A DNA stretch of 64,000 nucleotides from positions 32,364,001 through 32,428,000 of the forward strand of contig OX442314.1 of NCBI GenBank assembly GCA_949358305.1. The letters run 5' to 3'. The DNA comes from Strigamia acuminata (taxonomy: Eukaryota). Numbering within the stretch: the first letter of the stretch is position 1; each line of letters opens with the position of its first letter. Made by a program: the position numbers and the translations under genes. Below are positions 1-52,833 of this stretch, in pieces. The notes beneath the pieces are model-generated. The model had not been told where the DNA came from, did not search any database, and saw only the letters and a list, made by a program, of their open reading frames with translations.

Positions 1-414
1 CATTCAAACGCTGGGTCCGTTTTAACGCCTGGCAGGCGTACACAAAGTAGTTTATAGACGCCGGCTTCGTATTAACGCCGGGTTTCAAATTGGCGCCAGG
101 TAAACGCGGAAATGGCCAATTACGTATTCATAACGTTTCGGAAGTTTCGGAAATTGACGCTGCTGTAATTGTTGGCACTTCCAATCCGGGTGCCTTCACT
201 GTTTCTGATCACTTATTAGCTCAATGGGATATTTAGATTTTTGCAAAATATAAAAATAAAAATTTATTTCCAAAAAAAAATATTTTTCTGCCACTTTGTT
301 TTCCCGATAACTTATTTTTGACTATTTTTCTGGTTAAACGCCTGGCTCGAATAAACGCCTGGCTATAGGCCCAAAAAGAATTTAAATGCCTGGACGTTTA
401 AATGAGGCAGTACG
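1..414. mobile_element. Right part of a pogo/Tigger-like MITE, truncated by the window edge
   Basis: Repeated AACGCC(T/G)GG motifs and a terminus ...AGGCAGTACG resembling the TIR end of the MITE at 10643-10995. Confidence 0.4.
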
Positions 415-640
415 TTATAAAGGTGACGAGTACTCTGCCCGGCATTACTTGGCGCGGCATGAATTGGCGCGGCAAATTTTCTTGCCGCACATCCATGGTA
501 TCAACAATAGCGGCGCCGCTATTGTTGATACCCATGGTATGGGTTGGCGCGGCAATGCGTAAAGGAAGTACGGTTTCGATGATCTTGCGCGGCACGTTTG
601 TATGACGTGACGCGGCACGTCTTAATAACGTGACGCCGCG

Positions 641-36767: not shown

Positions 36768-37424
36768 ATGACTACTACTTCAAGCAGCGGGACCTACTCT
36801 CTTGGTGGGGAGATCTATTGTCAAGTCAATCCATTTCTAGCTGGAGTCTACATCCACCTAAGACGATTTCTGACATACCCGAACGGAAAGCTGTATCCCT
36901 CTCGTGATGGTATGTGCATGAACGTTAAGACATTTTATGATTTTGTGGAACATTGGAAGCAGATAACGAGTGAAATTGCGAATTTAAAAACCAAGAAATC
37001 ATCAACCATTGAGTGTGAAGGTGGTGTTTTAGTCACTATTTCCAAGTCGAAAACTGATGATGTATCTTTGATGATATGTCGTTCATTTGCGCCAGAGAAG
37101 TTTATTCTGCTTTCATATGAACAATGGCGTCAACTCAAGAAGCAGCGATCATCCATATTTTCGGGCATCGATGAAGCTCTGTCAAAGTTGCAAGAGAGCA
37201 ACCTTCAATTTCCAGCTATTCCCGAGGAAACAACTGCAAGTTCATTTGTTACTCCGACCACATCTCAAGCTCCAATTGTTTTAAAAAAGAAAAAGGAGAG
37301 AAAGCAAATGAAGAAGAAACCATATCAGAGACCCATTCCTGGTGTGCATTTTGTGGATTCTTCTGATGAGGATGTCGATTCAAAACCTACCAGTGTACCT
37401 GTCGATACTGATGATGATGAATAG
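36768..37424 (+). CDS. PC4/Sub1-like ssDNA-binding protein (probably a tandem domain) with basic NLS and acidic tail
   Basis: YSLGGEIYCQVNPF..GVYIHLRRF...GKLYPSRDGMCM resembles the PC4 pattern; second degenerate unit ends ILLSYEQWRQL; TATAAA at 36715-36720 favours ATG 36768. Confidence 0.7.
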   Translation: MTTTSSSGTYSLGGEIYCQVNPFLAGVYIHLRRFLTYPNGKLYPSRDGMCMNVKTFYDFVEHWKQITSEIANLKTKKSSTIECEGGVLVTISKSKTDDVSLMICRSFAPEKFILLSYEQWRQLKKQRSSIFSGIDEALSKLQESNLQFPAIPEETTASSFVTPTTSQAPIVLKKKKERKQMKKKPYQRPIPGVHFVDSSDEDVDSKPTSVPVDTDDDE

Positions 37425-37622
37425 ATTTATAGTTAATTTGTTATTTGTATTGGTAGAATAGAAATTGTATACTTTAGTTTAAATTTTTTTTGTACTTATT
37501 TCTTTTTTTTTGTGTTAATTATATAAATAAAATTTGTTTGAATAAGAATACATCTTTTTTCTTTCATTAATTTCTTTAACAAATAAGTTAAGTTGTAATA
37601 AGGGTGTTTGTGTTATATTAGT

Positions 37623-37935
37623 GGAAATGGAGGATAAAACAGGAAGCGAGCGGTGCAAAGTTGTCCTCTGCTATGATTCGTTGAAACCATTTTAGACAAG
37701 TTTCAACATGTCTCATCAATTGCACTGTTTGGAAGGGAGGATAAAACAGAAAGTGAGTGGTGCAAATGTCTCCTCTGCTATGATTCGTTGAAACCATTTT
37801 AGACAAGTTTCAACATGTCTCAGCAATGGCACTGTTTGGAAGGGGGGATAAAACAGGAAGTGAGCGGTGCAAAGGGGAGGAGTCCTCTGCTATAATTTGT
37901 TGAAACCGCTTGGGGGACAAGTTTAGACATGTCTC
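37623..37935 (+). promoter_or_regulatory. Three ~107-114 bp tandem repeats, each with a p53-consensus site and an ETS-like motif, upstream of alkB
   Basis: AGACAAGTTT-CAACATGTCT (37694, 37801) and GGACAAGTTT-AGACATGTCT (37915); followed by ATTGG (37938) and TATATA (about 37964). The repeat is certain; the function is inferred. Confidence 0.7.
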
Positions 37936-38002
37936 CGATTGGACAGCAGAATAGGTTAACTGCTATATATACCGAGCTGATGTTTCTTTTGGATGAAAAA
38001 AC

Positions 38003-38701
38003 ATGGAGAAGACGACAATAGAGCCTGTTTGTTGGAAAGATATTCTCAAGCAGGATTTACACTTGCAGTATGGGCTTCTTTTCAACAAAGAAGTAGCTGA
38101 TTCTACATTTCAAAAGCTGGAAAATGAAATCACATACTATACAGGTAGACTGAGTCAAATCAAGATTTATGGCAAGTGGATCAATATACCGAGACAACAA
38201 GTTGCATTTGGTGATGATGGATTGAAATATTCATTTTCTGGTAATACTTTACCGGTTAAAACTTGGACTCCTCTTTTGCGTGATTTACGAGATGCCGTTC
38301 AGTTTGTTACCGGACATGAATTTAACTTTGTTCTCGTTAATCGTTATGCAAATGGCAACCAGACTATTGGTGAACATCGAGACGATGAGGTGGGACTTCA
38401 TCCAAACGCACCAATAGCGAGCCTGTCTCTAGGACAAAACAGAAACTTTGTTCTTCGTCACGTGTCTCTTAAGCGAAAGTATACTATTCGCAACTCAGTC
38501 TTACCACCAAAGCCGATTTCTCTCGCGTTGGAACACGGTAGCATTCTGCTAATGCACCAACCTACAAACCGTTTTTGGTATCACAGTCTTCCAAAGCAAA
38601 TTTCTGCACTTCATCCGCGAATCAACTTAACTTTTAGAAACATCATTCAAAGTAAGTTCCATTTATTTAATGATATTATTATAAATGAATATTTATTTTA
38701 A
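38003..38701 (+). CDS. alkB: AlkB-family 2OG-Fe(II) dioxygenase, ALKBH2-like
   Basis: IPRQQVAFGD, YSFSG, FNFVLVNRY, HRDDE (HxD), IASLSLG, WYHSLP, RINLTFR (RxxxxxR). Confidence 0.93.
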   Translation: MEKTTIEPVCWKDILKQDLHLQYGLLFNKEVADSTFQKLENEITYYTGRLSQIKIYGKWINIPRQQVAFGDDGLKYSFSGNTLPVKTWTPLLRDLRDAVQFVTGHEFNFVLVNRYANGNQTIGEHRDDEVGLHPNAPIASLSLGQNRNFVLRHVSLKRKYTIRNSVLPPKPISLALEHGSILLMHQPTNRFWYHSLPKQISALHPRINLTFRNIIQSKFHLFNDIIINEYLF

Positions 38702-38714
38702 TTCGTGTTTTAGA

Positions 38715-39374
38715 ATGAATTCGGAACAATTAAAAAACGTAGGTTGTATTATTGACTTTGAGGGATTCCAGTTTGGTCCCGACTTTCTACTCAAGGAGCT
38801 CGGAGTGTGTTTTCTATACAAGGATTCTACTTTAAGTTATCACTTTCGTGTTGGACAATTTGACAAACTAGAACCAAAATGGCAAAAAGTTGCTGCTTGG
38901 TTAAAACGTAATATCCACGGTATGAAGTTTGAAGATGGTCCTGATGATCTACCTCAAAGCTGGATTTCTTTTATCCTCACACCTTTACATATAAATTGTG
39001 TTCAGGAAGCCAACAGACCAATTATTGCATTCAAAGGAGGCCAAATTGAAAAAAATTGGTTAATCAAATGTGACATTCCATACCTCGACCTGGAATCATT
39101 GGGATGTCCAAAATATCAGGACCTTCATTTTAATCTTGATCCTGATTCAAAACCTTTATGTCACCTTCATGAATCCCTACTTCCCTCCAAGTTAATGCAC
39201 TGTCCTCAAGCTGAGTGTCTTTGCTTTAAGGAGTGGTGTATTGAAACTCAAGACCATTCTTATCTCGACGATCTTGAAGCCCTCCTTCATGGAACGGGAA
39301 ATGAAAATGCGAACGGAGATGATGCGGCGAATCCGGGAACGGAAGCAAACCTTTCGCAACTGGCCTGTTTCTAG
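38715..39374 (+). CDS. Putative DEDD/RNase H-fold nuclease-like protein
   Basis: IIDFEGF..F.LKEL (ExoI-like DxE), HG, and C-terminal CHLH..HC; family assignment by motif only. Confidence 0.55.
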   Translation: MNSEQLKNVGCIIDFEGFQFGPDFLLKELGVCFLYKDSTLSYHFRVGQFDKLEPKWQKVAAWLKRNIHGMKFEDGPDDLPQSWISFILTPLHINCVQEANRPIIAFKGGQIEKNWLIKCDIPYLDLESLGCPKYQDLHFNLDPDSKPLCHLHESLLPSKLMHCPQAECLCFKEWCIETQDHSYLDDLEALLHGTGNENANGDDAANPGTEANLSQLACF

Positions 39375-39615
39375 ACACATCGCCGACCCTTCCACCTTAG
39401 CCCGTGCTGGATTCAAATACTTGGGTGAAAATGATCATGTTGAGTGCGTCTACTGTCTCGGTCGATTAAAAGAGTGGAAACGTGGTGACATACCTCTTTT
39501 GGAACATTATTCTTGGTATGCCTATTGTCCATTAATGAGAATTACTTTTGAAAAAGGACTGAATGAAGAGTGGTTGATTTATAAATCCATCTATGGGTTA
39601 GATACACCAGGTTGA
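39289..39615 (+). CDS. Single-BIR inhibitor-of-apoptosis-like protein
   Basis: RKQTFRNWP, LARAGF, CVYC-x16-H-x6-C; no RING domain; overlaps the end of the upstream ORF. Confidence 0.9.
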   Translation: MEREMKMRTEMMRRIRERKQTFRNWPVSRHIADPSTLARAGFKYLGENDHVECVYCLGRLKEWKRGDIPLLEHYSWYAYCPLMRITFEKGLNEEWLIYKSIYGLDTPG

Positions 39616-39644
39616 TAGAAACACCAGATTTTGTAACAATTACT

Positions 39645-40169
39645 TTATTTCTTTGTTTTACTTATTTGTACGATACAATTTTTATCATACAATGTTGACA
39701 TCTTAAAATTAAAAATATGTTTAACAAATTTTGTAACTTTTTTATCATTGTAATATGGATTTCTTGGATTAAATTGATTTTTTATATAATCAAAGCTTTT
39801 TCCTTTACACCTATTATAAATAAAATAAATGCAATAATATCCACATGCGAGACTACACGGTGATTGATAGGTTTGAGTAATCCTGTTGGTTAGTTTACAT
39901 CCAATATTTTGAATAAAAGCAGTAATTTCTTTCGCTGGTGGTTTACCGAACGAATCAAAATATTCAATCGCACCGGGTACTTTCTCATCTCGAAACAATG
40001 CTACCCAATGTTCGCCTGGTTTTGTATGGGGATGAGTATTTACAACAAACGCGCATGTTTTGTTTGTTTGTTGCGATGAGGATAGCAAATCAATTGGATA
40101 TACACCTTTAAAAATTTGCCTCGTCACTGAATTCTTAGATAAAATCTCCGTTATTTGGAGCGTGTTCAT
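39645..40169 (-). CDS. Adenain-like cysteine maturation protease
   Basis: GEHWVAL (His), YFDSFG (Asp), YQ....ACGYYC (Gln, Cys). Confidence 0.93.
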   Translation of the reverse strand: MNTLQITEILSKNSVTRQIFKGVYPIDLLSSSQQTNKTCAFVVNTHPHTKPGEHWVALFRDEKVPGAIEYFDSFGKPPAKEITAFIQNIGCKLTNRITQTYQSPCSLACGYYCIYFIYNRCKGKSFDYIKNQFNPRNPYYNDKKVTKFVKHIFNFKMSTLYDKNCIVQISKTKK

Positions 40170-40177
40170 AGCTTGAG

Positions 40178-41515
40178 TTAAAATTCAGTAATGATATTCC
40201 TCGCTCTATCAATCTCCAGTATGGATTGATATTCCGCCAGTACTAATACGGTTATGGTTGCAGTTAAGGCTTTATTAAATCTCATTTCAATCCTAACATT
40301 TCCTTGTTTTACTAAATTCAAATGTGGTTGACCGGCGGATGCATCTTGCGTTAAATCAAATCCAAATAAAACATTTCCGCCTAAACAATAATCAGTATAC
40401 GAAATGCCTAATCCTAAATCTTTATCTGCTCTATTCATAGTTTGGTATAAGGTAATAAATTCACGAGCTGCTTGTCCTTTTGCAAAATCTGGCTTATATG
40501 GACTCATTGGTACTCCTTTTCCATCCAAAAATACTTGAAGAAAATTTATTCCTTGGTTTTCAAAATTATACGGATTACTGGCATATGATCCGCAGTAGGC
40601 AGTGTTTTTCACAAGACCAATAATCAATCGGGATGGATATTGACCGAGAAATGCATTATCAATCATAGCAGTTTGCGATCCTGTAGCAATTGTAAATGTT
40701 TTAACTTCTACCCTTCTAATGGGATATTTCGCATTACGTTGCTCTAATGCTTGATGATGAGCTAAGAGTACACTAGCGCTAGGAACTATCTTTTTTACAA
40801 ATAAAGTTGCATCATTTATAACTGTTTTATAGGCCGCCCCTGCCTCTTTTGAAATTAAACTAAATGCATCATTTTGTCTAGTAAGTGTAATTCGCAAGTC
40901 AACATTATTTATGAGATAATGTGGTTGAGAAAAGATATCGCAGTGAAGTCTTCCAAACATCTGTAATTTTCCACAATCACCATCCTGCATGAGTCGATGA
41001 TATCGTTTATAAATTCCAAACTCCTCGTTAAAATCTGCTACTGTTGGATCTAAATCATCAAATGATCCTCCTGTATCCTCATAATACATCTCCACTGTTT
41101 TATAACTCTTTTTGGCATCATTTGAAAAACTGAGAATTGTTTCGAGATAACTTCTATAACAATAATTTGAATCGGAAGCTGACACTAGCTTATCATTTAG
41201 TCTAACATCTATTTGACTGAACAATGAATGTAGGAATAAATTTGTAGGAGAAACCTTAGCTGTTTTTGTAATTACAGCCCCAGCACCATCGGTTACAGTT
41301 ACATTTAGTAACAAGTATGTTTGACTCAAGTCAATGTACGTATCAGCAGTACCCTTGATTGAAAAATCTAATGGCTGTCCTGCAGTTACGGCTGTAATTG
41401 GATGGTATTCACTCCAATAATTATCTTCCACAGTTATTTGTGTGAGTGGTAATCCAAAAATGTCTAGTTCTGGAGTCGCGCCTTCGGCAGATGATTCATG
41501 GGGAAATTGCGGCAT
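40178..41515 (-). CDS. Major capsid protein (double jelly-roll)
   Basis: 445 aa; LHSLFSQIDV, YRSYLETIL, NPYNF and FGFDLT typical of Maverick MCP; adjacent to the protease. Confidence 0.9.
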   Translation of the reverse strand: MPQFPHESSAEGATPELDIFGLPLTQITVEDNYWSEYHPITAVTAGQPLDFSIKGTADTYIDLSQTYLLLNVTVTDGAGAVITKTAKVSPTNLFLHSLFSQIDVRLNDKLVSASDSNYCYRSYLETILSFSNDAKKSYKTVEMYYEDTGGSFDDLDPTVADFNEEFGIYKRYHRLMQDGDCGKLQMFGRLHCDIFSQPHYLINNVDLRITLTRQNDAFSLISKEAGAAYKTVINDATLFVKKIVPSASVLLAHHQALEQRNAKYPIRRVEVKTFTIATGSQTAMIDNAFLGQYPSRLIIGLVKNTAYCGSYASNPYNFENQGINFLQVFLDGKGVPMSPYKPDFAKGQAAREFITLYQTMNRADKDLGLGISYTDYCLGGNVLFGFDLTQDASAGQPHLNLVKQGNVRIEMRFNKALTATITVLVLAEYQSILEIDRARNIITEF

Positions 41516-41517
41516 GG

Positions 41518-42000
41518 CTAATCAAATATGTCAGGTCCAAGAAGTGAAGTTTTCCTTTTGCAGGACTTCCTACGCACGTTCTTCTTTGGTCGAGTTCGTC
41601 TCTTAGACTGATTCTTTTGTTTGGTTACACGTCTTTTCTTTTGTTTACCATCCATCCGCTTTTGTTTGCCTCCTTTCTGTACACCAATCTTTTTTAAAAA
41701 ATCCGATTTGGTTCGAACAACCTGATCTTTAAATGCATTTCCAAATTTTCTCTTTTTTACACGCATATCGGAAATTACGTCTAATCCTCTCTTCAAACCA
41801 TACGTTGCTGCATCCAACGCTCCACTTCTCACAAAAGGCTTTACAATTCGAAATGCGTCACTTATAAGTGAACCCAAACCATGTCCTTGTTGATAGCGAG
41901 ATCCTACAAATATAGGAAGATCTGCTCCACCTATTTGCGCATGATTTGAGCAATATCTATCCATGCAGATTTGAGGGTTTAGTTCATAGTGAAATCTCAT
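41518..42000 (-). CDS. Small basic virion core/membrane-active protein candidate
   Basis: QQGHGLGSLISDAFRIVKP amphipathic segment, QxGG motifs and Lys/Arg-rich tail; ATG 42000 lies just after the penton stop. Confidence 0.7.
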   Translation of the reverse strand: MRFHYELNPQICMDRYCSNHAQIGGADLPIFVGSRYQQGHGLGSLISDAFRIVKPFVRSGALDAATYGLKRGLDVISDMRVKKRKFGNAFKDQVVRTKSDFLKKIGVQKGGKQKRMDGKQKKRRVTKQKNQSKRRTRPKKNVRRKSCKRKTSLLGPDIFD

Positions 42001-42004
42001 CTTG

Positions 42005-43135
42005 TCAATCCAATCTCTTCCTGAAGTGTAACGTTGCAACGACACGTCCAAACTCGAATGGTACTTTTTCTCCGGTGTCACCCCTTATAAGCACTTGTAT
42101 GGATTCAAATTGCAATTTTGCCAGCGGTTTATAATGTGGATTTTCAAAAGTTTGGGAGATGTATTGTCCTCGCTCTTTTCCTTGAATCTGTATTATTCTT
42201 AACAGTGGCGCTAAAGTATCCCCAACAATGTTTGGTTGTATTAGATTGCAATACAAGTACATATGATATAGTCCAACTTGTTCATCCATTTTATGAAAAG
42301 CTTCTGTTGTTTTTGTAATTACACGCAAATCATTAAAACCGAGAGTTGATGCCAAGGCTTTATCAAGAACCAACTTGGTGTTAATTGGCAAGTTAATCTC
42401 AATTTTCTTTGATGATATATTAAAACTAAATGGTGCTTTATCAATAACTACGAGTGCTTTAAGATTTAAAGCATCTACTAATTGATCAGGTCCCGAATAA
42501 TTTCCAGGTTTCAAGCTTTGTTTCTGTTTACCATCAGTCTCCTTTTCAATTGATAAATTCCAATTTTTATCATTGATAAGATTTGGTGTGAGACGTGGAG
42601 AATCACGAGCCGTCTTGGATTCATCAGCGTAAAAATCATCATCTTCATCTTTCACAAAACCTAACACATATGCCAGCCTCTGCGGGATCATGACTTGAAA
42701 CTTAGGCATAATTATTATTTCAAATCTTAAACGAGTGGAATTCCAGTGAAATTTAATTCCTAATTTTTGCAATGCTTTGTCAAGATCTTTAACTTTCTCA
42801 TCTTTCTTGGTTGGAGATGTTAAATTATTATTTAAAAAGTTAAGAAACTCGGATATTAACTTATCCTGCGGTAGGGATGCATCCACAAATTTGAATGGTG
42901 GAAATTTGATTGCATTGACTTCATTCTTCAGTATTCGAAAATCGGCACCTCGGGGCAATAGAGCAGTACTCCAGCTTCTTGGATAAAGGAATTCAACCAG
43001 ACCCACTTCCCAATTTTCATCTAAATTAATATATGATGGTAATTGCGTATGAAATTCCGTCAATGTATTATTCGGGTAATAATCTAAGCTGCTATTTGAT
43101 GGAAGACTCACATAGAAACTCTGTTCCGGATCCAT
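42005..43135 (-). CDS. Minor capsid protein (penton) with central insertion
   Basis: N-terminal FYVSLPSNSS..PNNT..WEVGL and C-terminal YCNLI..VGD..APLLR..TLHFR, typical of Maverick penton. Confidence 0.88.
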   Translation of the reverse strand: MDPEQSFYVSLPSNSSLDYYPNNTLTEFHTQLPSYINLDENWEVGLVEFLYPRSWSTALLPRGADFRILKNEVNAIKFPPFKFVDASLPQDKLISEFLNFLNNNLTSPTKKDEKVKDLDKALQKLGIKFHWNSTRLRFEIIIMPKFQVMIPQRLAYVLGFVKDEDDDFYADESKTARDSPRLTPNLINDKNWNLSIEKETDGKQKQSLKPGNYSGPDQLVDALNLKALVVIDKAPFSFNISSKKIEINLPINTKLVLDKALASTLGFNDLRVITKTTEAFHKMDEQVGLYHMYLYCNLIQPNIVGDTLAPLLRIIQIQGKERGQYISQTFENPHYKPLAKLQFESIQVLIRGDTGEKVPFEFGRVVATLHFRKRLD

Positions 43136-43188
43136 GCCTGCTCACTTCTGATTGCATCATTGAGGTGACATCACCTCTTATATGAACA

Positions 43189-43788
43189 ATGTTTCATCAT
43201 CCATTTACTGCTATTATTTCTGGAAGTTCGGGTACGGGCAAAACGGAGATATGTAAGAAAATTATCCGAAATGCGAGTAAAATGATTGATCCACCCCCAC
43301 AAGATATTTGCTGGTACTATTCAATATGGCAACAGTGGTATATCGAATTTCCCAATGTGCAGTTCCACGAAGGATTACCCAATTTAAAGACTTTGGATTC
43401 ATCAACGAGAAAGCTTTTCATCATTGACGATCAAATGGAAAATTTAAATCAAGAGATTGGGTTATTGTGGACTAAATATTCGCACCATACGAGCACTAGT
43501 GTATTTTATTTATGCCAAAACATATTTCATCAAAGCAAATATCAACGAACTTTATCTTTAAATAGTCACTATTTAATCCTTTTTCGAAATCCAAGGGATA
43601 TGAATCAAATCGCAAAAGTAGGGAGTCAAATGTTCCCACAGCGAGGTAAATTTTTCATGTCAGCATTTAACGATGCAACAGCGCAAAGTTTTGGGTATTT
43701 ATTAATTGATTTGAAACCGGATACACCCCAAGATCAAAGAGTGAAGACTAATATATTTCCGGATGAATATACTATAGTTTACATATAG
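43189..43788 (+). CDS. FtsK/A32-like genome-packaging ATPase
   Basis: Walker A GSSGTGKT, Walker B LFIIDD, SHH..Q motif. Confidence 0.93.
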   Translation: MFHHPFTAIISGSSGTGKTEICKKIIRNASKMIDPPPQDICWYYSIWQQWYIEFPNVQFHEGLPNLKTLDSSTRKLFIIDDQMENLNQEIGLLWTKYSHHTSTSVFYLCQNIFHQSKYQRTLSLNSHYLILFRNPRDMNQIAKVGSQMFPQRGKFFMSAFNDATAQSFGYLLIDLKPDTPQDQRVKTNIFPDEYTIVYI

Positions 43789-43797
43789 ATTCCACCA

Positions 43798-44133
43798 ATG
43801 AAACGAGTAAGACGTCACGCCAATGTGCTCCGGGCCATTCCCGATTTAAATAAGAGACAAATCAAGGATTTTCTCAAACATTCTAACGATGATTTCTGTA
43901 AAACCATCTGTGAAATTTGTTTAAACATTATAAAAGGTACAATTAAGTTAGGAGCAAATCAGAAACAATCACTTTATCGAAAGAGAAGGTTGTTAAGAAA
44001 ATTGGCCACTCCTACATCTTCATTCAAACAAAGACGGAACTTGGTCATTCAAACTGGTGGATTTTTACCGCAACTACTCGCCCCAATTATTGGAGCATTA
44101 GTAGGTAAACTAATTAGTAAACAAAATGGCTAG
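43798..44133 (+). CDS. Small basic Maverick protein of unknown function
   Basis: CEICLNIIKG, basic middle region, QTGGFLP followed by a hydrophobic tail. Confidence 0.75.
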   Translation: MKRVRRHANVLRAIPDLNKRQIKDFLKHSNDDFCKTICEICLNIIKGTIKLGANQKQSLYRKRRLLRKLATPTSSFKQRRNLVIQTGGFLPQLLAPIIGALVGKLISKQNG

Positions 44134-45016
44134 GAAAATGGTTTTAGTACCGCAGGAAATGATGTCATCTTTACAATATTCGAAAAAGAACTATGATGAT
44201 ATTGATCCGCAATATCAAAAATTGCAAAAGATTGAATCGTCAATAGAGGAAATTTTCAATGATGCAAACTTGAATGATGAAATGAAAGCTAAACTTATAT
44301 CGACACTTCAATCGCAATTTGGAAACTTTAAACAAAAGCTAATTAAACAATTAAATGCACCAAAAACTGTTACTATATCACCTCCAACTCAATCCGCATC
44401 TCCACCTCAATCACCACCACCAATTGTTTCGCACTTATCCACATCTCAATCGCCATTTGTTCTTCAACCATTGGATAAAATAATGTTGAATAAAATGTCA
44501 AAAGATCAAAAGAAACAAGCTATTGCGTTAATGGAAGTTATGAATTTGAATCCAAGGTTGAAATGGAGCAATCTATCGGAAATGATTATAGATGGAGTAA
44601 AAATTCCAAATACAACCAAAGCTGATCTTATAAACTATACCATAAGAAACCGCCCGAAGCAAAATGTAATTCCGATTGGTCAGTCAGAGTATATTAAAAT
44701 TTTGATTGATTCAAATGTACCAAAAGAATACATTATAAACAAGAATTTAAGAAAGGAATTAATTAGACCGATGAGCACTTCAACTCCCACAATTACTAGG
44801 GACATTCATAGAGAGTCATTGAGTGGAAATGACTCCATCATCAATAATCAAACACTATCAGATCAAGATCAAGAGCTGTCAGACTTAGAGAACACTTGGG
44901 CACATTACGGAACACCAAACAAATCTTTAAGATTTCAACGAGATCAAGACGAGAGTTTATTCAAATATAAAACACCAAGTTCCGGTTCACAAAAAAGAAA
45001 AAAAATAAAGAAATAA
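44126..45016 (+). CDS. Maverick protein of unknown function
   Basis: 296-aa ORF between the ATPase cluster and integrase; coiled-coil N-terminus, C-terminal basic NLS. Confidence 0.75.
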   Translation: MARKMVLVPQEMMSSLQYSKKNYDDIDPQYQKLQKIESSIEEIFNDANLNDEMKAKLISTLQSQFGNFKQKLIKQLNAPKTVTISPPTQSASPPQSPPPIVSHLSTSQSPFVLQPLDKIMLNKMSKDQKKQAIALMEVMNLNPRLKWSNLSEMIIDGVKIPNTTKADLINYTIRNRPKQNVIPIGQSEYIKILIDSNVPKEYIINKNLRKELIRPMSTSTPTITRDIHRESLSGNDSIINNQTLSDQDQELSDLENTWAHYGTPNKSLRFQRDQDESLFKYKTPSSGSQKRKKIKK

Positions 45017-45056
45017 ACAGTATAACTAGGAGCATAGAACAAAGTTAGAAAAACAT

Positions 45057-46151
45057 ATGGCAGAGCAACAATTGAAAGATATCTACTTTAATCCAAGAAA
45101 TCCTGCCGGATTTAGTAGTCGAGATAAATTGTTTCATGCTGCACGTAATCGAGGGATACAAGTTACCAGAAAAGAAATTCAAGATTGGTTACAAGGATTA
45201 GATTCTTATACTTTACATAAACCAGTCCGATACAAGTTTCAACGCTCCAAGACTATTGTACCATCCATTAATTACCAATGGCAATCGGATTTGGTTGAAG
45301 TTGGAAACATAGCAAAGGAAAATGATGGAAATAGATATTTAATGACCGTCATTGATGTATTTTCACGATATGCGTATATTGAAGCATTACCAACAAAGTC
45401 TGCGCAACATATTATAAAAGCTTTTAAAACAATTCTAAAACGTGCCAAGACTAAACCCCTCTACCTGCAGACGGATAAGGGAAAAGAATACTTAAACAAA
45501 GCATTTCAGGAATTCTTACAGAAAAATAACATCAAACATTTTACTAGTGAAAATGATGATATTAAATGTTCACTTTGTGAAAGATTGAATCGAACCATAA
45601 AGCAGAAAATGTGGACTTATTTCACATATACCGGCAGACATCGATATATTGATCAACTGCAAACATTTATAGATTCATATAATCATAGCGTTCATCGAAC
45701 ATTAGGAATGAAACCTGTTGATGTTACGAAAGAGAAAGAACCGGCAGTGTTTTACCACTTATATGGTGATACAATAAATAAAAGACATAAGAAATTTAAG
45801 TTTAATATTGGTGATGGTGTTAGAATATCAAAATCTAAAGTGGTTTTCCGAAAGGGATACAGGGGAAGCTATTCGCATCAAATTTATTATATTATCAATC
45901 GATTAATCCGACCACCAGAAGTTGTCTATATGCTTAAAGATTACAATGATGAACCTTTACTCGGTACATTTTATGAATTTGAGTTGCAGAAAATTAATAA
46001 ACCCAAGGATGCGGAGTATGCTGTAGAAACAGTATTAAAGTCTAAAGGCAAAGGTGCGAATAAATTATATTTTGTAAAGTGGATGGGTTATGGAGATGAA
46101 TTTAATTCCTGGATTCCCGCTGATGACTTACGAGACAACCCACCATTATAA
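45057..46151 (+). CDS. int: Retroviral-like DDE integrase with C-terminal chromodomain
   Basis: WQSDL, IDVFSR, QTDKGKEY, CERLNRTIK; chromodomain YAVETVL...YFVKWMGY...NSWIP. Confidence 0.95.
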   Translation: MAEQQLKDIYFNPRNPAGFSSRDKLFHAARNRGIQVTRKEIQDWLQGLDSYTLHKPVRYKFQRSKTIVPSINYQWQSDLVEVGNIAKENDGNRYLMTVIDVFSRYAYIEALPTKSAQHIIKAFKTILKRAKTKPLYLQTDKGKEYLNKAFQEFLQKNNIKHFTSENDDIKCSLCERLNRTIKQKMWTYFTYTGRHRYIDQLQTFIDSYNHSVHRTLGMKPVDVTKEKEPAVFYHLYGDTINKRHKKFKFNIGDGVRISKSKVVFRKGYRGSYSHQIYYIINRLIRPPEVVYMLKDYNDEPLLGTFYEFELQKINKPKDAEYAVETVLKSKGKGANKLYFVKWMGYGDEFNSWIPADDLRDNPPL

Positions 46152-46207
46152 TTTGTATACACACATAAATAATAAAGATATATTTCGATCATTGCATATG
46201 CACTTGT

Positions 46208-46594
46208 TTATTTAACAATAGTTACATTCGAATGGAGAAAAGAGATTGCTCGAGTTAATCTAATCCATTGATACCAATTTAAATTAATTCCTTTGATGGA
46301 TGGACCAGCTCTGCTAAACTGTCTGATATCAAATATTACATCATCTCCACGTTTGCAAATATTTAGTTGTTTTCCATTTCCTAGATCAAAAGTGGAATTG
46401 CATCCATTGGATACAGGCAACATTTTCACTACATCCACAGTTGGTTGGATTAAGGTTGGAGGAGAGTACATCAGAATCATGATTTGTAGAATAACGATAC
46501 AACATCCAACAACAGAGAAACTTCCAGTCGTAATCCATAATTTATGATTTTCAAATAAGAGCATCAGGTTTTTCTGTAATCCTGCTCTGTCCAT
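46208..46594 (-). CDS. PC4-like domain protein with an N-terminal hydrophobic helix
   Basis: FDLGNGKQLNI...VIFDIRQF...PSIKGINLNWYQWIRL (PC4 pattern) preceded by FSVVGCCIVILQIMILMY. Confidence 0.7.
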   Translation of the reverse strand: MDRAGLQKNLMLLFENHKLWITTGSFSVVGCCIVILQIMILMYSPPTLIQPTVDVVKMLPVSNGCNSTFDLGNGKQLNICKRGDDVIFDIRQFSRAGPSIKGINLNWYQWIRLTRAISFLHSNVTIVK

Positions 46595-46774
46595 GGTTTG
46601 TGAAAGAATGACACGATAATATATATAATAATGGTTTTATTTTATAAAAATAATAATAATAATAATAATAATTTCATTTACAAAATAAATTACATGATAA
46701 GATAATGATATAATAATAATAAAAATATGTAACAGTTTTGTTTACAAAATAAATAAATAAATAAATAACACTTT

Positions 46775-49700
46775 TTACAAAATAATATTGTAATGCCCAT
46801 GAGCTAGAGTCGTTACACCATCACTCAAAATGTACCTTTTATCATCTCCAGCAGACAAAGCAATTTTCTTTTGCAAAATTGTATATAATTCGTGATCGAA
46901 AGAGCGAATTTGATTTGATGAACGTGCGTTTTCTATTTTGTTGAATAGACACTCTTTGTAGTCTTTGTGGCGAAGTTGATTTCGCACACTTCGAGGTACA
47001 CCTTTTGCTGTCTTTTTTTCTTGATCTTTTGTTTTAAACGAATACATTTTACATCGAAGTCCGAGAAATTCCTGTATGCATTTCCCGGACATTTCGTCTT
47101 TAAACTTTCCAATTACCTTTTTATTCTTTGTGCTGTATAGGGAGTGTGTGGAAGGATAATCTGAAGTGTCGAATTTTTCTAAATCTTTTTTCATGTCTGC
47201 ATAAATATCATCTGTTTCGATATTATACGTTAAACTATCCGTATCAGTAAAAAGCAACCTGGCTTTGTTCCCATATGTTTTTTTGATATGATTATAATGA
47301 AAATCATACATAAGGACTTTGCTAAGTTCTAGAATGCAAAAGCCCACGTATATGGGTCTATTTAATAGGATATTTCTTTTCTTTAAATGTACACCTACAA
47401 GATCTTCATTGAAAATCTTGAACTCGTGAAAAGTTGGTGAATTTAATAATTTAGTCACTCGCTCTGGATTTTGCACCAACCTCACATCAACACGTTTCCT
47501 GACGGATTCGAGCGACTTCCCAAAAACACTATTATTCATCAATTTGAAGAAGTCCTTTTGAAAACTATTGGTTGCTTGTTTTCGCAACTCTGTATTTAAG
47601 CCAATGTACTTTGCAAGCCAATCAGATTGTTCAAATTCCAGAATTTTATGAATTTTCGTGACTTTCATTCCCAATTTCAAATACAATTGGAGGTTTTGGT
47701 AGTGGATAATATATTTTGTTTTGTTAGCAAGGTTAGGAACTAATTTGGGAGATGGGTGATGTTTTTGTTCTAGTAGGGTAAGGTGTTCGAGACTGTAGGG
47801 TGATAACATGTTTTCAGTTACTGTTAGTCGTTCGGGAGCAAGAGGATAATCGTTATGGGAATCATGGAGTTCTTTGGGATATTCTAAATCTACTTCCAAA
47901 ATATACCCCTTTGTGCTGGTTTCACTAATGCTTAACACATCAAAATCATCGGTGGGCGGTATCCATTTGAAATTATGAGTTGGTAAATATTGGTTCATTG
48001 CCCAGCCGTACAAGTTATTCGCATCGAGATAGATGATGTGATTGGATGGAAGGTCCTCTTTATAATCATCTAAATCTTTGTGATTGGCTTTAGCAAATCG
48101 ATGGCTAATCATTGATATACCACCGCGAATACCATTTTCAATAAAAACATGCATAAGCGGATCCGTTAACAGTTCTAATTTGACATCCGTTAGTTTCAGA
48201 CATGCCCCCCACGAGAGACCGGGTGTTGTGAAATAATTACAACAATCCAATTTATAAGTCTCTAAACAAATCGATCGAAAATTTTCAAAGACGTCAGCTA
48301 GCAGCAAAACGTCAGTCAAAACATAAAGGTCTTGATAAACACCGAGATTTTGGATATTGAATTTATCCCACACTTTCTTTGCATGAATATAGTCAGATTC
48401 GGATACACTTTGCTCACTTAGAGTACTGTAAAATTCGGATATGGGAGGAAGTTGGACTTCGTTGAATTTGATCCAAGAGTCCATGTACTCATATGGAAAA
48501 ATACCTTTCCGTAATAACAATCCGATTTCATCAGGATTGAAATGTTGATTCATTATTCGGAATTGGTTTGGATCACTTTTGAATAAATTAGCTACTAATG
48601 ATTCTAATGATGCATTCATAAATTGCAGACTATCGAGAAATCGAAGATTTCCGAGTGAAAAAGTAATATATCGTTGCATGTTGGTTGGAATACAGCTTAT
48701 TTCACGATCTTTATACTTTCCAATTCCCTGCATTAATAAATGTGAATCATAATTTTTTAAGTTATGAAACACAACAGGAATTTGTTTAGATGTTCTGCGA
48801 TACATCAGATTACAAAAATTATGAGCAGGGCCACGGAACTTGCCAGTAGCATGATCATGGTCCCTTACTTTCTTTTCATTTTTTAAAAATGTTTTATTAC
48901 AAATGTGACAAGATGTAGCACTTTCCATAAACAATTTTTCTTCATTCGATAAATCCATTGGAAGATTTAAAGCCATAAGCTTTTCCAACTCTACTTCCAA
49001 TTTAGTAATATGATCAAGAAAATGATCAACTGCATTTTCACCTCGATATACCGATGGAGGTTGGTGAAGTTTACCTTCTGTATTGATAACAGCATAAGCA
49101 TAACCCGATGGTACGTGCTTGGACACTTTTTGCACTTTGCTTGTCTCATCTTTTTCAACATTTTTAACGAGCAGTGACTCAAAATCCGCATATATAACAA
49201 ATGGGACTTTAAATTGTTTATGGAAATCATTAAAGTGCATCCATTTTGTTTCATCGGTGGGGTATTTAACTTTTTGAAGCCCGTAGGTTGAGCAATACTC
49301 CAAGTGATCTTTTAGTATCCGTTCTGACGAACATCTATGCAGACAATATTTACAATAGTGAGCTAATTCATTGTGATGTGTTAAGGAATGTAACAGTTTA
49401 TTTATATTTTTAATCCAACAATAATGTTGGGTTTGATCATTAGCAAAAAGTAACAAATTTATTTGGGTTTTATGTTCCAATTTGCTAATGTATAGGGGAA
49501 ACACTTCTTTTTCGAAACCGAACACATGAACACTAATAGAATTCATGGTTTCAAACTTGGGGATTTGTTGAAGAGTCATTGGGAATGAAAGTCCGGTTAA
49601 ATCTAAAGTGTTTCGGTACTTGGTATAATGTGAAACACGTTCAGGGTGGGAAGGTGCAGGATGCAGAGCAGCTAAAACACTCCAGAGAAAACACAAAGAA

Positions 49701-51199
49701 TCTTGATTTTGTACATTTATTATTGCTTTTTTGTCTGCTAAAAATTTGGGGAGTGCGATGTAAGATCTTCCAGCCAATGGGCGATATCTACCAATATTCA
49801 CATGCATCTCTACCACCGCTTCAAATACCCAACCACTACCATCTCGTTGAAATTCGGCGCAAGAACGTTTAATTTTCTCGTATGCCTCCAATAATTGGTT
49901 CTCGAGATCCGATTCAACAAGCGCAATATAGCAAATGCTTCGAAAACATGCAATGGTTTCCGTATCACCACTCTGTGATGATCGAGTGAAATGTATTTTA
50001 ACGGCGATATAATATTTTACCGCTTTCTTTTTAATCAATTGGAAGTTTAAAATCCGTTTCACTCGAGTGTGGTGTTGAATGAAAAAATGATTTAAATCAC
50101 CACAATCATCACCGGGAATTTTATACGTGTTGACGTTTCCCTCTAATGCGTCAACACAAGGATCATCGCAGGGTAGTGGTTGTGGATGTGGAACGGCGGG
50201 TAAAGGAAGAATGTGAACTTGCATGTGTTTAAGTAAATTATTATTTGAAGAAAAAGACTTTTTGCAAACATTGCAAGTAACTGTCTCTTTGCTGCGATTG
50301 TGAATATTTTTAACATGTCGCAGCATGTCATCTTTACGCTTAAACATATTTGAACATATTCCACACTTGAATGTGCTTTTGGAAAGAGTATGTAAATGAA
50401 GAATATGTCGTTTCAAAGTAGAATTACAAGAAAAATTTTTTTTGCAGTACTCACATGAATGTACTTTCTGTCCACCGCCAATTTGTTGCATTAAAGTCAT
50501 AGGAGATGGGGGATTGACGATGCGGCTTGTTCCTGCTTGCTGCAAATTTGGTTGGTAGTGGTACACAGGAACTGAAGACTCACACGATATCGATAGATTG
50601 CACGATTGAGATGAGGCAGGTTCAGATTGATTGTCGCAGGTTGGAGTTGGCACGAGTTGAGATTGGATGACGTAGGATGGAGATGGTACATGTTGAGACG
50701 GAATGATGATGGTGGGTGGTGAGAGTGGATAAATTGGAGAATGATTATAAATCCATGGAGAATCATTGTATCCATTTTCTTCATCCGGTAGAGGATTGGG
50801 TGTGTTAACTTGAGGAAATAGAGATTCTTCAATTTCTGTAAGCATCTCTTCAAATTCACAAATATTATGTTGCACCACTTGATTATGGATTTGATGGTTA
50901 ATCATGAGAGGAACGGGAGACTCACATGATGTCAATGGATTGCAAGATTGAGATGATGCAGGTTGAGATTGGAAGACGCAGGTTGGAGATTGCACGTGTT
51001 GAGAGTGGTTGATGATGGTAGGCGATGAGAGTGGATAAATCGGAGAATGATTGTAAATCCAACATGGAGAATCATTGGATCCATTTTCTTCATCATCAAC
51101 ATCTAGCAGTGGATTAGGCGTGTTTATAGGAGGAAAGAGAGATTCTTCAATCTCCATAAACAACTCTTCAAATTCAGACTGAATGTGGTTAAATTCCAT
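46775..51199 (-). CDS. polB: Protein-primed family B DNA polymerase with N-terminal repeats, three C2H2 fingers and an endonuclease VII-like insert
   Basis: YADFES (ExoI), FHNLKNYD (ExoII), DANNLYG, KLMNNSVFGK, TDTDS; DHDH..G..RG..H..CN insert; TATA and CCAAT positions favour ATG 51199 over 51271. Confidence 0.96.
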   Translation of the reverse strand: MEFNHIQSEFEELFMEIEESLFPPINTPNPLLDVDDEENGSNDSPCWIYNHSPIYPLSSPTIINHSQHVQSPTCVFQSQPASSQSCNPLTSCESPVPLMINHQIHNQVVQHNICEFEEMLTEIEESLFPQVNTPNPLPDEENGYNDSPWIYNHSPIYPLSPPTIIIPSQHVPSPSYVIQSQLVPTPTCDNQSEPASSQSCNLSISCESSVPVYHYQPNLQQAGTSRIVNPPSPMTLMQQIGGGQKVHSCEYCKKNFSCNSTLKRHILHLHTLSKSTFKCGICSNMFKRKDDMLRHVKNIHNRSKETVTCNVCKKSFSSNNNLLKHMQVHILPLPAVPHPQPLPCDDPCVDALEGNVNTYKIPGDDCGDLNHFFIQHHTRVKRILNFQLIKKKAVKYYIAVKIHFTRSSQSGDTETIACFRSICYIALVESDLENQLLEAYEKIKRSCAEFQRDGSGWVFEAVVEMHVNIGRYRPLAGRSYIALPKFLADKKAIINVQNQDSLCFLWSVLAALHPAPSHPERVSHYTKYRNTLDLTGLSFPMTLQQIPKFETMNSISVHVFGFEKEVFPLYISKLEHKTQINLLLFANDQTQHYCWIKNINKLLHSLTHHNELAHYCKYCLHRCSSERILKDHLEYCSTYGLQKVKYPTDETKWMHFNDFHKQFKVPFVIYADFESLLVKNVEKDETSKVQKVSKHVPSGYAYAVINTEGKLHQPPSVYRGENAVDHFLDHITKLEVELEKLMALNLPMDLSNEEKLFMESATSCHICNKTFLKNEKKVRDHDHATGKFRGPAHNFCNLMYRRTSKQIPVVFHNLKNYDSHLLMQGIGKYKDREISCIPTNMQRYITFSLGNLRFLDSLQFMNASLESLVANLFKSDPNQFRIMNQHFNPDEIGLLLRKGIFPYEYMDSWIKFNEVQLPPISEFYSTLSEQSVSESDYIHAKKVWDKFNIQNLGVYQDLYVLTDVLLLADVFENFRSICLETYKLDCCNYFTTPGLSWGACLKLTDVKLELLTDPLMHVFIENGIRGGISMISHRFAKANHKDLDDYKEDLPSNHIIYLDANNLYGWAMNQYLPTHNFKWIPPTDDFDVLSISETSTKGYILEVDLEYPKELHDSHNDYPLAPERLTVTENMLSPYSLEHLTLLEQKHHPSPKLVPNLANKTKYIIHYQNLQLYLKLGMKVTKIHKILEFEQSDWLAKYIGLNTELRKQATNSFQKDFFKLMNNSVFGKSLESVRKRVDVRLVQNPERVTKLLNSPTFHEFKIFNEDLVGVHLKKRNILLNRPIYVGFCILELSKVLMYDFHYNHIKKTYGNKARLLFTDTDSLTYNIETDDIYADMKKDLEKFDTSDYPSTHSLYSTKNKKVIGKFKDEMSGKCIQEFLGLRCKMYSFKTKDQEKKTAKGVPRSVRNQLRHKDYKECLFNKIENARSSNQIRSFDHELYTILQKKIALSAGDDKRYILSDGVTTLAHGHYNIIL

Positions 51200-51301
51200 G
51201 ATACAAACAGAACCTAGCACTTGCAAGAAGTGAAGAGAAGAGAGAAGGGAATTGCAAGTATATATAGCCATTACTAGTTACTCATTGGTTAAGATAACTA
51301 C

Positions 51302-51737
51302 CCAATAATATCCCTCCTTTGGTTAAAAGTAGCCTAAGGATCCTTTGAAAATTTGGGAAAAACAACAACAAGGTACTTAAGTAAAGAAAAACAAGGGTCC
51401 TTTGAAAATTTGGGAAAAACAACAACAAGGTACTTAAGTAAAGAAAAACAAGGGTCCTTTGGAAAAAACAACAACAAGGTACTTAAGTAAAGAAAAACAT
51501 TAACAAATAATAGCCTAGGGCACATTGATTGAATGATAAGACTGATTGATTGAAGCAATTAGTCACCCCCACTTAGCTCTCCCCTTATCTCCCCCTCTCC
51601 TTATCTCCCCCTCCTCTTATCTCCCCCTCCCCTTATCTTCCCCTCCCCTTATCTCCCCCCCACTTAACCCTCACCACCCCCTCCCCCACCCCCCTAACCG
51701 TCAACCGCTGGCCCAGGATCCCCATAAACCCACTACT
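51302..51737 (-). repeat. Polinton right TIR (436 bp)
   Basis: Reverse complement of 36203-36639. Confidence 0.95.
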
Positions 51738-52833
51738 GATTCTTATTTGAATAGAAAGTTTTGAGGAGGTAAAGATCTAATCATCATTCTAGTTATATTT
51801 GTCGACCGACTGCCATGAATGTGTGACTGGTAAGGTCTTCTCCATGGCAGCCTGGGGACTGGTTACCGTGGGGTGGGAAGCATACTCACTTAAATAAGAC
51901 AAGAAACTCCAGATTGTTGGTTGTTGGCCTTTATTAGTTTCGTTGTTTAGGGGTTGGAGACTCCCATCTACCCACACGTGGGTGTTGTTGCGAAAGCACT
52001 TTTTTCTAGTTCTAATTCTAACAGTACACACTTGTTTTACATTTTAAAATGAATCATTATTTCAGCTTGCCCAGTATTCTTTCTCATCAATTGAAAACAA
52101 AGTGTTGATGTTTGTCATCAAGGAAACACGTGGAACTCAAAATCTAAAGCATGATCTAGATTTGCCCGTATTACAGGATCTCATCATATGGAGAGAGAAT
52201 AAAGTTTACTTATTCACATATGCTCAACACAGTAATGTATGAGTCAATAGTTAAAGCATTATTAACAGTATGTTTGCAGAATGTTCATTTTGTTCTTAAT
52301 TAACACCGTTTATTTCAACACATCTAAAAGTACATGGTGTATCCAAATCTGCTCGTTTAAAACGATACAGGGTCATTAATTGATGACACCAAAATGAAAA
52401 CCACCGTTACGGATTAAAGATTGGTGCAATTTTTGTCTACAAAGATTAGCATTCACTATATTTGATTTTTAAAATATATTAACTACATATAATTTAAAAT
52501 AAGGAAGTTTATTTATACTGTTCATATTTTTTAATCTGATATTACAGAATTTTAGCTTGCAGTTATTGAAACATAAGTCTGATGGTAACATTTTTCAAAC
52601 AACCAACTTGGGGATAAATTGTGCGGAACAACAAAAATGTCAATTTGAAAAGATTTCTCAAACACCAGTGATTCTGAAAAAACAAAATTATACTGTAGCC
52701 CAGGTAAAGCATGCTACTACAATTTAAATAGTAATTATAAATAATATTGCATGGCAGATTTATGGGGACAACTAATAGGGAGGAGGTAAATCTGAATGGT
52801 GCAAGTGTGTCACGAAAGGTCCAGTGTAAATCT

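Follow-up and report, generated by a model that had tools for sequence, protein, structure and literature searches.

ALKBH2-like, MAEL-like and BIR genes as accessory cargo of a complete Maverick/Polinton in Strigamia acuminata

Adintoviruses and other animal Polintons are characterized by a family B DNA polymerase (PolB), an rve integrase, a packaging ATPase, the adenain protease and inverted ends (PMC8502044), and adintoviruses also carry IAP and Bcl2 homologues (PMC8502044, section 3.2). In addition, a 'MAEL' gene is labelled on adintovirus maps (Fig. S2 of Starrett et al. 2021, PMC8502044, in part), and mael recurs as an accessory gene in insect polintons (Pannagram, 10.1101/2025.02.07.637071, in part); statements citing a source as 'in part' refer to the available portion of that text. 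Here we describe a Maverick/Polinton of Strigamia acuminata and three genes that it carries. The element lies in a window of 64,000 nucleotides, the whole stretch of DNA analysed (assembly GCA_949358305.1, contig OX442314.1, 32,364,001 to 32,428,000, forward strand), and the positions given below are those of this window.

The element is complete, has all the above-mentioned core genes and inverted ends in common with the adintoviruses, and its core frames (protease, ATPase, integrase and polymerase) are all open with their catalytic motifs present. An earlier note on this DNA had proposed that three open reading frames (ORFs) form an accessory gene cluster, and all three are indeed cargo inside this complete Maverick, with open frames and conserved ligands. 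They are predicted to encode an ALKBH2-like dioxygenase (hereafter AlkB), a MAEL-like DEDDh nuclease (the middle gene) and a protein with a single BIR domain. On balance, this accessory cargo of an intact Maverick likely constitutes a self-protection unit. MAEL and IAP cargo is already published, both being labelled on the Fig. S2 maps (PMC8502044, in part), and the IAP homologues of adintoviruses (PMC8502044) agree with the interpretation given in the note. What is new is an ALKBH2-like gene from which the RKK loop has been lost and, based on modelling, the case for a near-complete catalytic site kept in the MAEL-like family. Of the three genes, the middle one, to which the note had assigned no role, arguably has the most to tell. 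In the adintovirus study, the term 'AlkB' is absent from the main text and readable supplement, Fig. S1 and S3 lying outside these (PMC8502044, in part), and likewise from the available texts of 10.1101/2025.02.07.637071, 10.64898/2026.10.13.758929 and PMC10748475. No report of AlkB on a Maverick/Polinton was found in a literature search that covered neither Repbase, nor subscription journals, nor some supplements.

Arrangement and distribution of the three genes

The earlier note had described the three ORFs as co-oriented and abutting or overlapping. Three plus-strand frames are present and, counted from the first ATGs of the ORF list, AlkB overlaps the middle gene by 17 nt and the middle gene overlaps BIR by 86 nt; the second overlap stands as read, whereas the first probably does not. 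The middle ORF extends over 38685-39374 (229 aa) from its first ATG and encodes 219 aa from the ATG at 38715. An 8-nt stretch at 38681 is absent from sister copies in three of four runs, which eliminates the ATG at 38685 and shifts the tail of AlkB, and the relatives of the middle protein start near the ATG at 38715, which leaves a 13-nt gap to AlkB. Because of both observations, the 17-nt overlap is probably an annotation artefact. From the ATG at 38715, the N-terminus of the middle protein is of ordinary length among its relatives. The 86-nt overlap covers only the tail of the middle protein, which was modelled at low confidence and has 38 residues against a median of 3 (at least 30 in 9 of 134 relatives); past R212, AlkB continues for 20 residues, the median among 120 relatives being 7. 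Close packing cannot be taken as a mark of this cluster, as it had been, given that compact spacing is general across the element: core genes are separated by gaps of 2, 4, 8 and 9 nt, and one pair overlaps by 8 nt.

A TATA-like box (37964) is located 39 nt upstream of the AlkB ATG, and no plus-strand AATAAA was found between 37526 and 39819. The three-gene unit converges on the protease/capsid unit. Because the first plus-strand AATAAA (39819) is inside the protease gene and a minus-strand AATAAA (39644) is near the convergence point, transcripts of both units would be expected to overlap. It is likely that one transcript serves the three genes, starting after the TATA-like box and running into the convergent protease gene. 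If the candidate 62-nt intron were removed, to which we give slightly less than an even chance, AlkB would end after codon 217 with a TGA overlapping the ATG at 38715. Among the joints listed for the four runs, none of which is recorded as RNA, none corresponded to this intron. Two fusions were considered and rejected: one of AlkB and the middle gene through splicing, as the candidate intron would terminate AlkB at codon 217, and one of the middle gene and BIR, as relatives of the former end at about residue 181 and the BIR Cys/His pattern occurs in none of the 150 listed. A sigma-70 promoter scan was inapplicable to an animal element. A repeat of about 107 nt, with the core ACAGGAAGTGAGCGG, is found once before the PC4-like gene (36643-36719) and three times before AlkB (37626-37895), and its number of units varies among contigs. 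We take this core to recall the ETS-type sites of the adenovirus E1A enhancer.

The foremost rival of a common self-protection unit is that three functional genes were gained separately at the variable left end of the Maverick and adjoin one another only because this end can take up cargo, without common purpose or transcript and with AlkB as a help in replication repair. We consider this rather unlikely, even if several data are in its favour. MAEL and IAP sit on different adintovirus maps according to the Fig. S2 labels (PMC8502044, in part), the core genes of the element are as compact as the cargo, and the AlkB overlap is not conserved. Furthermore, a TATAAA (38680-38685) located 35 nt before the middle-gene ATG could be a promoter of its own. 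However, the 8-nt deletion of the sister copies disrupts this TATAAA, and the candidature of 38652-38713 as such a promoter is thereby weakened; BIR has no TATA-like box, and the lack of a plus-strand AATAAA extends over the whole unit. In addition, contigs of a 12%-diverged copy bridge AlkB and the middle gene, which dates their pairing to before about 12% divergence.

As to the distribution, the earlier note had called the trio a module, and this was not borne out: the core genes are equally compact, Polinton genes were detected beside none of the other AlkB loci, and the same trio had no second locus outside S. acuminata among the 85 loci tested, which also speaks for separate gain. These loci were those among the matches listed (84 for AlkB and one for the middle gene, 32 of them of at least 8 kb) and came from mostly microbial collections with many short contigs, in which distant Polintons could escape tblastn. 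Viral-contig scans with AlkB and with the capsid candidate yielded no locus.

The MAEL-like middle gene

The middle protein has no match in a Pfam scan, and a word-based homologue search was empty, a result overturned by the full HMMER search, which found 381 relatives at E<=0.001, 135 of them at E<=1e-10. Among the nine top relatives (P0121-P0129), three clusters are named 'hypothetical protein' only and six are nameless. No true match was obtained in PDB sequence searches with the protein or its profile. For the alignment, 134 of the 150 listed relatives were used, 16 long, repeated or partial ones being excluded, and the AlphaFold model built from it reached a predicted local distance difference test (pLDDT) value of 90.1; the fold predicted from the single sequence reached 37. 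The model matches DEDDh exonucleases, in agreement with the 'DEDD-like' label of the earlier note. Using Foldseek, its best PDB matches were arenavirus nucleoprotein (NP) exonucleases, followed by RNase T. VIA-align gave a Z of 12.1 for the Lassa NP exonuclease (root-mean-square deviation 3.4, 148 residues aligned), 12.1 for DinG, 11.8 for the NP of lymphocytic choriomeningitis virus (LCMV), 11.2 for Pol III epsilon, and 10.8 and 10.0 for Maelstrom. According to the model, the RNase H-like DEDDh fold is certain. Z alone does not single out the nearest family; the residues point to Maelstrom and arenavirus NP, because both have in common the ECHC zinc motif (PMC7968707 and PMC4408791, both in part).

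The key residues of the middle protein are D14, E16, G17, E28, E112, C149, H152, H162, C163 and E167. Four of them (E28, C149, H152 and C163) make up the ECHC motif, a putative zinc site kept in 125 of the 134 relatives. In the Lassa alignment, residues 8..178 lie on 383..544 and, if gapless, D14/E16/G17/H162/E167 would fall on D389/E391/G392/H528/D533, a mapping drawn from alignment ends and secondary structure and not from coordinates. The counterpart of D466 is likely E112, which the model places in the helix that follows strand 4. In Lassa NP, D389, E391, D466, H528 and D533 form the catalytic set and G392 specifies RNA (PMC3429428, in part). Of 135 rows, 124 retain G17; 105 of the 134 relatives have all five catalytic positions, and 100 have both motifs.

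Compared with arenavirus NP (Lassa 3r3l, LCMV 4o6h), the DEDDh fold, the ECHC motif, the His-Cys-x3-acid arrangement and the glycine after D-x-E are common. The middle protein differs in being a stand-alone protein of 219 aa, with 18-20% identity and Glu at two Asp positions. In Lassa NP a basic loop and Y429 set the specificity for double-stranded RNA (dsRNA), and the likeness described here refers to the sites named above. With the MAEL domain of Maelstrom (4ybg, 5af0, 9nhc) and the Entamoeba protein EhMael it shares the fold, the ECHC spacing (E in strand 2, then C-x2-H...C) and the last catalytic position, four residues past the last Cys. Metazoan Maelstrom has an HMG box and has lost the DEDD residues, unlike the middle protein, which lacks an HMG box (its domain starts at about residue 8) and keeps the positions like the protist enzyme.

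These comparisons bear on a second rival, in which the middle protein imitates Maelstrom, binding RNA with weak or no catalysis and hindering piRNA silencing by competition and not by cutting. In favour of such a mimic are the ECHC residues, the Z of 10.8 and 10.0 to Maelstrom structures and the Glu at two catalytic positions; moreover, Maelstrom of Bombyx is able to bind RNA but leaves it uncut (PMC4408791, in part). However, animal Maelstrom has lost the DEDD residues, N124 and R306 being found in Bombyx (PMC4408791, in part), whereas the family described here keeps acidic residues and His at all five positions in 105 of 134 relatives. Exoribonuclease activity is known for Entamoeba MAEL, a protist protein in which both motifs occur (PMC4408791, in part). 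In addition to the missing HMG box, none of the 135 family members matches the Pfam Maelstrom models. The mimic is thus unlikely in our view, a little more so than separate gain, and an active 3'-5' RNase is slightly more probable than not.

The note had named neutral evolution as a refuting outcome, and for the middle gene purifying selection was observed instead, in one sister contig. Over X3 record 22 (38948-39238), to which difference rows were assigned by position and depth, there are 26 differences, and the 24 listed comprise 19 synonymous and five non-synonymous ones. The resulting pN/pS, in which the non-synonymous differences per site are divided by the synonymous ones, is 0.07, or 0.10 if both unlisted differences are non-synonymous (P<2e-8). 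Two of the five non-synonymous differences are common to nearly all contigs, so they are peculiar to the window's copy.

Among viral structural matches of the model, a Drosophila-associated adintovirus 2 protein was third-best (E 4.2e-09, 19% identity), and ichnovirus proteins were also included. The middle gene likely corresponds to the adintovirus 'MAEL' gene. A viral-contig scan with the middle-gene alignment found one locus (L001, 10001-10459), in a contig of 496 kb; the MAEL-like domain there is the C-terminal end of a 1031-residue frame. Because of this locus and the ichnovirus fold matches, the family appears to have spread to larger arthropod-associated viruses.

The ALKBH2-like and BIR proteins

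AlkB matches PF13532 (E 2.5e-28). Aligned to human ALKBH2, it keeps the Fe(II)/2-oxoglutarate (2OG) ligands H125, D127, H194, R206 and R212, as had been claimed, and it also carries N113 and Y115. The score against human ALKBH2 was 216 bits (E 5e-63) and that against ALKBH3 82.5 bits. In total, 735 proteins reached E 0.001; the 120 of them that were listed are cellular ALKBH2-like proteins with 46-55% identity, and wherever an organism is named for them it is an animal. Enzymes of PF13532 are known in Marseille-, Mimi- and Phycodnaviridae (PMC10598087, in part), so a viral AlkB as such is not new; those are large protist viruses, in contrast to an integrating animal element of 15.5 kb with an animal-type ALKBH2.

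The HxD...H triad, the 2OG arginines, the F1 hairpin and the pocket (Y76, F78, S79, E129) are common to the Maverick enzyme and human ALKBH2 (PDB 3rzg), the hairpin I53-K-I55-Y56-G57 corresponding to human V99-Q-V101-F102-G103. The Maverick AlkB differs in having Q-I-S for RKK, a 4-residue insertion in the long loop, an intronless core and a mobile element as carrier, and in its short N-terminus, in which the first conserved Trp is preceded by 10 residues (median in relatives, 46). The RKK loop of ALKBH2 grips the complementary strand (PMC12295762, in part). In AlkB it reads Q199-I200-S201, without any basic residue; in the same columns of the 120 relatives, three basic residues are found in 62, two in 49, one in 9 and none in 0. 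Its 198-205 stretch has one basic residue, as in 4 of the 120, and the long basic loop is ordinary (6 K/R, median 6). AlkB would then be an ALKBH2-like variant with the F1 hairpin present and the RKK loop absent.

The claim that the enzyme protects displaced single-stranded DNA (ssDNA) found little support in that form. AlkB is of ALKBH2 type, the hydrophobic hairpin that confers duplex activity is kept, and ALKBH2 repairs both ssDNA and double-stranded DNA (dsDNA) (Monsen et al., PMC2965238, in part), with a preference for dsDNA according to a review (PMC11431407, in part); a reading restricted to ssDNA therefore does not follow. The RKK loss would leave a shift towards ssDNA possible, without showing one.

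Quick trees were computed with 120 rows, P0001 being left out, and with 86 rows after P0001, P0004 and a further 33 rows from fish had been removed. AlkB was the longest branch in both, with no supported sister, and for this reason no donor can be named, AlkB being likely captured from an animal. A grouping with P0004 was rejected as a long-branch join, as AlkB had no supported position once P0004 was removed. The 'host-derived' origin proposed by the note thus fits AlkB, which is animal ALKBH2-like, and fits the middle gene poorly, given its 381 unnamed relatives and its kept catalytic positions. Over the aligned parts, the AlkB frame is kept in copies about 12% and about 18% apart. A second, more distant AlkB copy was observed in X1-X3, the contigs from runs of the same organism, with 67 differences over 374 nt and no gap, in contigs of at most 3587 nt aligned at 38015-38592.

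The BIR ORF matches PF00653 (E 1.5e-19) and, as stated in the earlier note, keeps the four Zn ligands (C53, C56, H73 and C80). It agrees throughout with the BIR consensus GX2YX4DX3CX2CX6WX9HX6-10C (PMC3972657, in part), the matching residues being G41, Y44, D49, C53, C56, W63, H73 and C80. Among single domains, those of cIAP BIR3 type match it best (E ~1e-14), and L60, W63, D67, E72 and W76 equal cIAP1 BIR3 in the alignment. These five positions presumably belong to the type II peptide-binding groove. A word-based search gave no close relative, which says little because the same search missed the middle-gene family found by HMMER.

No RING was detected in the BIR protein: its frame ends 28 residues past C80, and the protease gene on the other strand ends 29 nt past the frame, leaving no room for one. 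A complete BIR is common to Op-IAP, A224L of African swine fever virus (ASFV), cIAP1 BIR3 and Livin, and A224L likewise has one BIR and no canonical RING. The Maverick protein differs from viral IAPs in its length of only 108 aa and in having neither a RING nor a C-terminal zinc finger; Op-IAP and DIAP1 have a C-terminal RING. For insect viral IAPs, binding of IAP antagonists is the presumed mode of action (PMC3972657, in part), and in cells A224L, which likewise has no RING, inhibits caspase 3 (PMC5618007, in part). The idea that this protein keeps the cell alive found little support: because the BIR is without RING, a full IAP is less likely than a decoy, which is plausible from the domain found. 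Binding of IAP-binding-motif peptides by the BIR is fairly probable, and that this binding delays apoptosis is a little less than evenly likely.

That AlkB and BIR are captured host genes decaying neutrally in a recently inserted element is very improbable, for although AlkB is the longest branch and is off consensus at eight well-conserved columns including RKK, BIR has neither RING nor a close relative in the word-based search, and the few differences listed are not mostly synonymous, AlkB retains every ligand while sharing 46-55% identity with the cellular ALKBH2-like proteins listed, its frame is held in copies 12% and 18% apart over the aligned parts, and BIR fits its consensus throughout.

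The Maverick, its surroundings and the proposed role

Table 1. Positions of the Maverick/Polinton of S. acuminata, its ends, genes and candidate signals in the window.
Feature	Position	Strand	Basis
Target-site duplication, left copy, GATTCT, 6 bp	36197..36202	.	perfect duplication
Maverick/Polinton, complete, 15,535 bp, termini AGTAGT...ACTACT	36203..51737	.	repeats, target-site duplication, genes
Terminal inverted repeat, left, ~446 nt	36203..36648	+	99% complementary over 390-nt arm
PC4-like ORF, 234 aa, likely ssDNA binding	36720..37424	+	PF02229 E 7.4e-05, below curated cut-off
Likely promoter of three-gene unit: three ~107-nt repeats, then TATA-like box	37626..37970	+	function inferred
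ALKBH2-like Fe(II)/2-oxoglutarate dioxygenase, 232 aa unspliced, 217 aa with candidate intron	38003..38701	+	Pfam, alignment, ligands
Candidate 62-nt GT-AG intron or AT-rich spacer, AlkB/middle gene	38652..38713	+	GTAAGT...TTTTAG; predicted
MAEL-like DEDDh nuclease, ECHC zinc residues, 219 aa	38715..39374	+	model, homologue alignment, purifying selection
Single BIR domain protein, 108 aa, without RING	39289..39615	+	PF00653, ligands
Adenovirus-type maturation protease (adenain)	39645..40169	-	PF00770 E 4.2e-07, above cut-off; H54, CGYYC motif
Likely major capsid protein, 445 aa	40178..41515	-	position, size, N-terminal motif; no family match, unconfirmed
Basic 160-aa ORF, likely virion core/accessory protein	41518..42000	-	label tentative; no family match
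Likely minor capsid protein, 376 aa	42005..43135	-	label tentative; no family match
Packaging ATPase	43189..43788	+	weak Adeno_IVa2 and Pox_A32 matches; Walker A and B
111-aa ORF, adenovirus pX-like C-terminal stretch	43798..44133	+	PF05829 E 0.037, weak
296-aa ORF, no family assigned	44126..45016	+	ORF listing, Pfam scan
rve integrase with C-terminal chromodomain	45057..46151	+	PF00665 E 6.7e-19, PF00385 E 3.1e-08; D-D-E motifs
Second PC4-like ORF, weak, 128 aa	46208..46594	-	PF02229 E 0.032
Family B DNA polymerase, 1498 aa, likely protein-primed; C2H2 fingers, endonuclease VII domain	46775..51271	-	polymerase/proofreading motifs; PF00096, PF02945
Terminal inverted repeat, right	51293..51737	-	pairs with left repeat
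Target-site duplication, right copy, GATTCT	51738..51743	.	perfect duplication

The contigs of X1-X3 join across the whole element, covering all 30 bins, and include closer and more distant copies of it. Contig joints that skip the whole Maverick confirm its ends; their interpretation as an empty allele was rejected, as the flanks themselves repeat (D3, D4) and one joint has extra letters. Because the inverted ends are near-identical and the frames open, the insertion appears to be recent. Some copies are without the PC4-like gene, X1 and X3 contigs skipping 622 nt (36788-37411), and the two PC4-like ORFs show no mutual likeness by BLASTP. In the polymerase frame the motifs YADFE, DANNLYG, KLMNNSVFGK and TDTDS are found, which we take to be family B signatures. 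At the start of this frame, an acidic/proline-rich block is duplicated (repeats D8, D9 and D13); three C2H2 fingers come next, and the endonuclease VII domain is located further on. The Pfam scan detected no OTU domain and no pfam03175 match in the polymerase and, lacking the latter, it fits the Beta PolB class of adintoviruses (PMC8502044). The 445-aa capsid candidate had no match in Pfam, family or viral-contig searches, and the 376-aa candidate none in Pfam or family searches, although both lie where capsid genes would be expected.

The two small basic ORFs at 41518-42000 and 43798-44133 presumably recall the cupiennin-like and gasderminX genes, a resemblance that is unconfirmed; the weak pX match is the sole tool support for the label of the latter. 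Cupiennin-like and gasderminX genes belong to adintovirus Beta-type virion modules (PMC8502044). The Pannagram insect polintons have the mael accessory gene in common with this Maverick, and among them mael characterizes one group and cupiennin/gasderminX another (10.1101/2025.02.07.637071, in part), whereas the Maverick has a MAEL-like gene together with, by tentative resemblance only, small genes of the other type.

Two further elements were observed in the window. A young Copia long terminal repeat (LTR) retrotransposon (24515-31235), with 300-nt LTRs 100% identical and an intact 1603-aa frame, contains a methyl-CpG-binding domain between integrase and reverse transcriptase and resembles members of the CopiaMBD arthropod family (PMC6673714, in part). 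A broken Gypsy-type LTR retrotransposon with reverse transcriptase, RNase H and integrase is on the minus strand (57100-62700). The domain carried by the Copia element hints that the host methylates DNA. The CpG observed/expected ratio is 0.76 in the Maverick and 0.83-0.89 in the flanks.

In the proposed self-protection unit, the ALKBH2-like enzyme would strip 1-methyladenine and 3-methylcytosine from Maverick DNA, the Maelstrom/arenavirus-NP-like exonuclease would degrade silencing-triggering RNA and the RING-less BIR would soak up pro-death peptides. AlkB is probably an active demethylase. Whether it acts on both ssDNA and dsDNA while holding the opposite strand less firmly through the RKK loss appears evenly balanced. 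Tentatively, it may clear polymerase-stalling lesions during strand-displacement copying, possibly 3-methylcytosine from host DNA methyltransferases, a lesion that ALKB2 repairs (PMC7343188, citing Rosic 2018, in part). The middle protein may possibly target the Maverick's own double-stranded or silencing-precursor RNA.

Several data weigh against this reading. DNA exonucleases score about as high as RNA ones with the middle-protein model, so the fold gives no substrate, and Glu replaces Asp at position 112 in 131 and at position 167 in 117 of the 134 relatives; because these replacements extend across the family, activity is likely and not certain. The longest-branch place of AlkB would also be expected from relaxed constraint. 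Few differences are listed for AlkB (among 40 of 238 rows, six: three synonymous and three non-synonymous) and BIR (five: two synonymous and three non-synonymous), and these are not mostly synonymous. The RING is important for IAP anti-apoptotic activity (PMC3972657, in part), and deletion of A224L is without phenotype (PMC5618007, in part). The CpG depletion of the Maverick is mild, which does not imply heavy host methylation. Finally, none of the 84 other AlkB loci is accompanied by Polinton genes (tblastn with 13 other element proteins, E 1e-3). A stricter version, in which a dedicated counter-defence transcript combines an active dsRNA exonuclease of arenavirus-NP type as silencing suppressor, a captured ALKBH2 that its RKK loss has retuned for erasing methyltransferase damage in ssDNA replication intermediates, and a BIR decoy, is unlikely.

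Mavericks may live as viruses, and a virus would need accessory genes directed against silencing and cell death. An animal-type ALKBH2 on a Maverick offers a natural loss of the DNA-gripping loop that its relatives keep, in an enzyme linked to repairing the damage that methyltransferases cause (PMC7343188, citing Rosic 2018, in part). The 'MAEL' gene, so far a map label, here appears to keep a near-complete DEDDh site together with the RNA-specifying glycine, which makes it a candidate for suppressing silencing in a DNA transposon or virus. If the counter-defence reading were true, the catalytically intact MAEL-like family would be a living link from Maelstrom to the arenavirus exonuclease.

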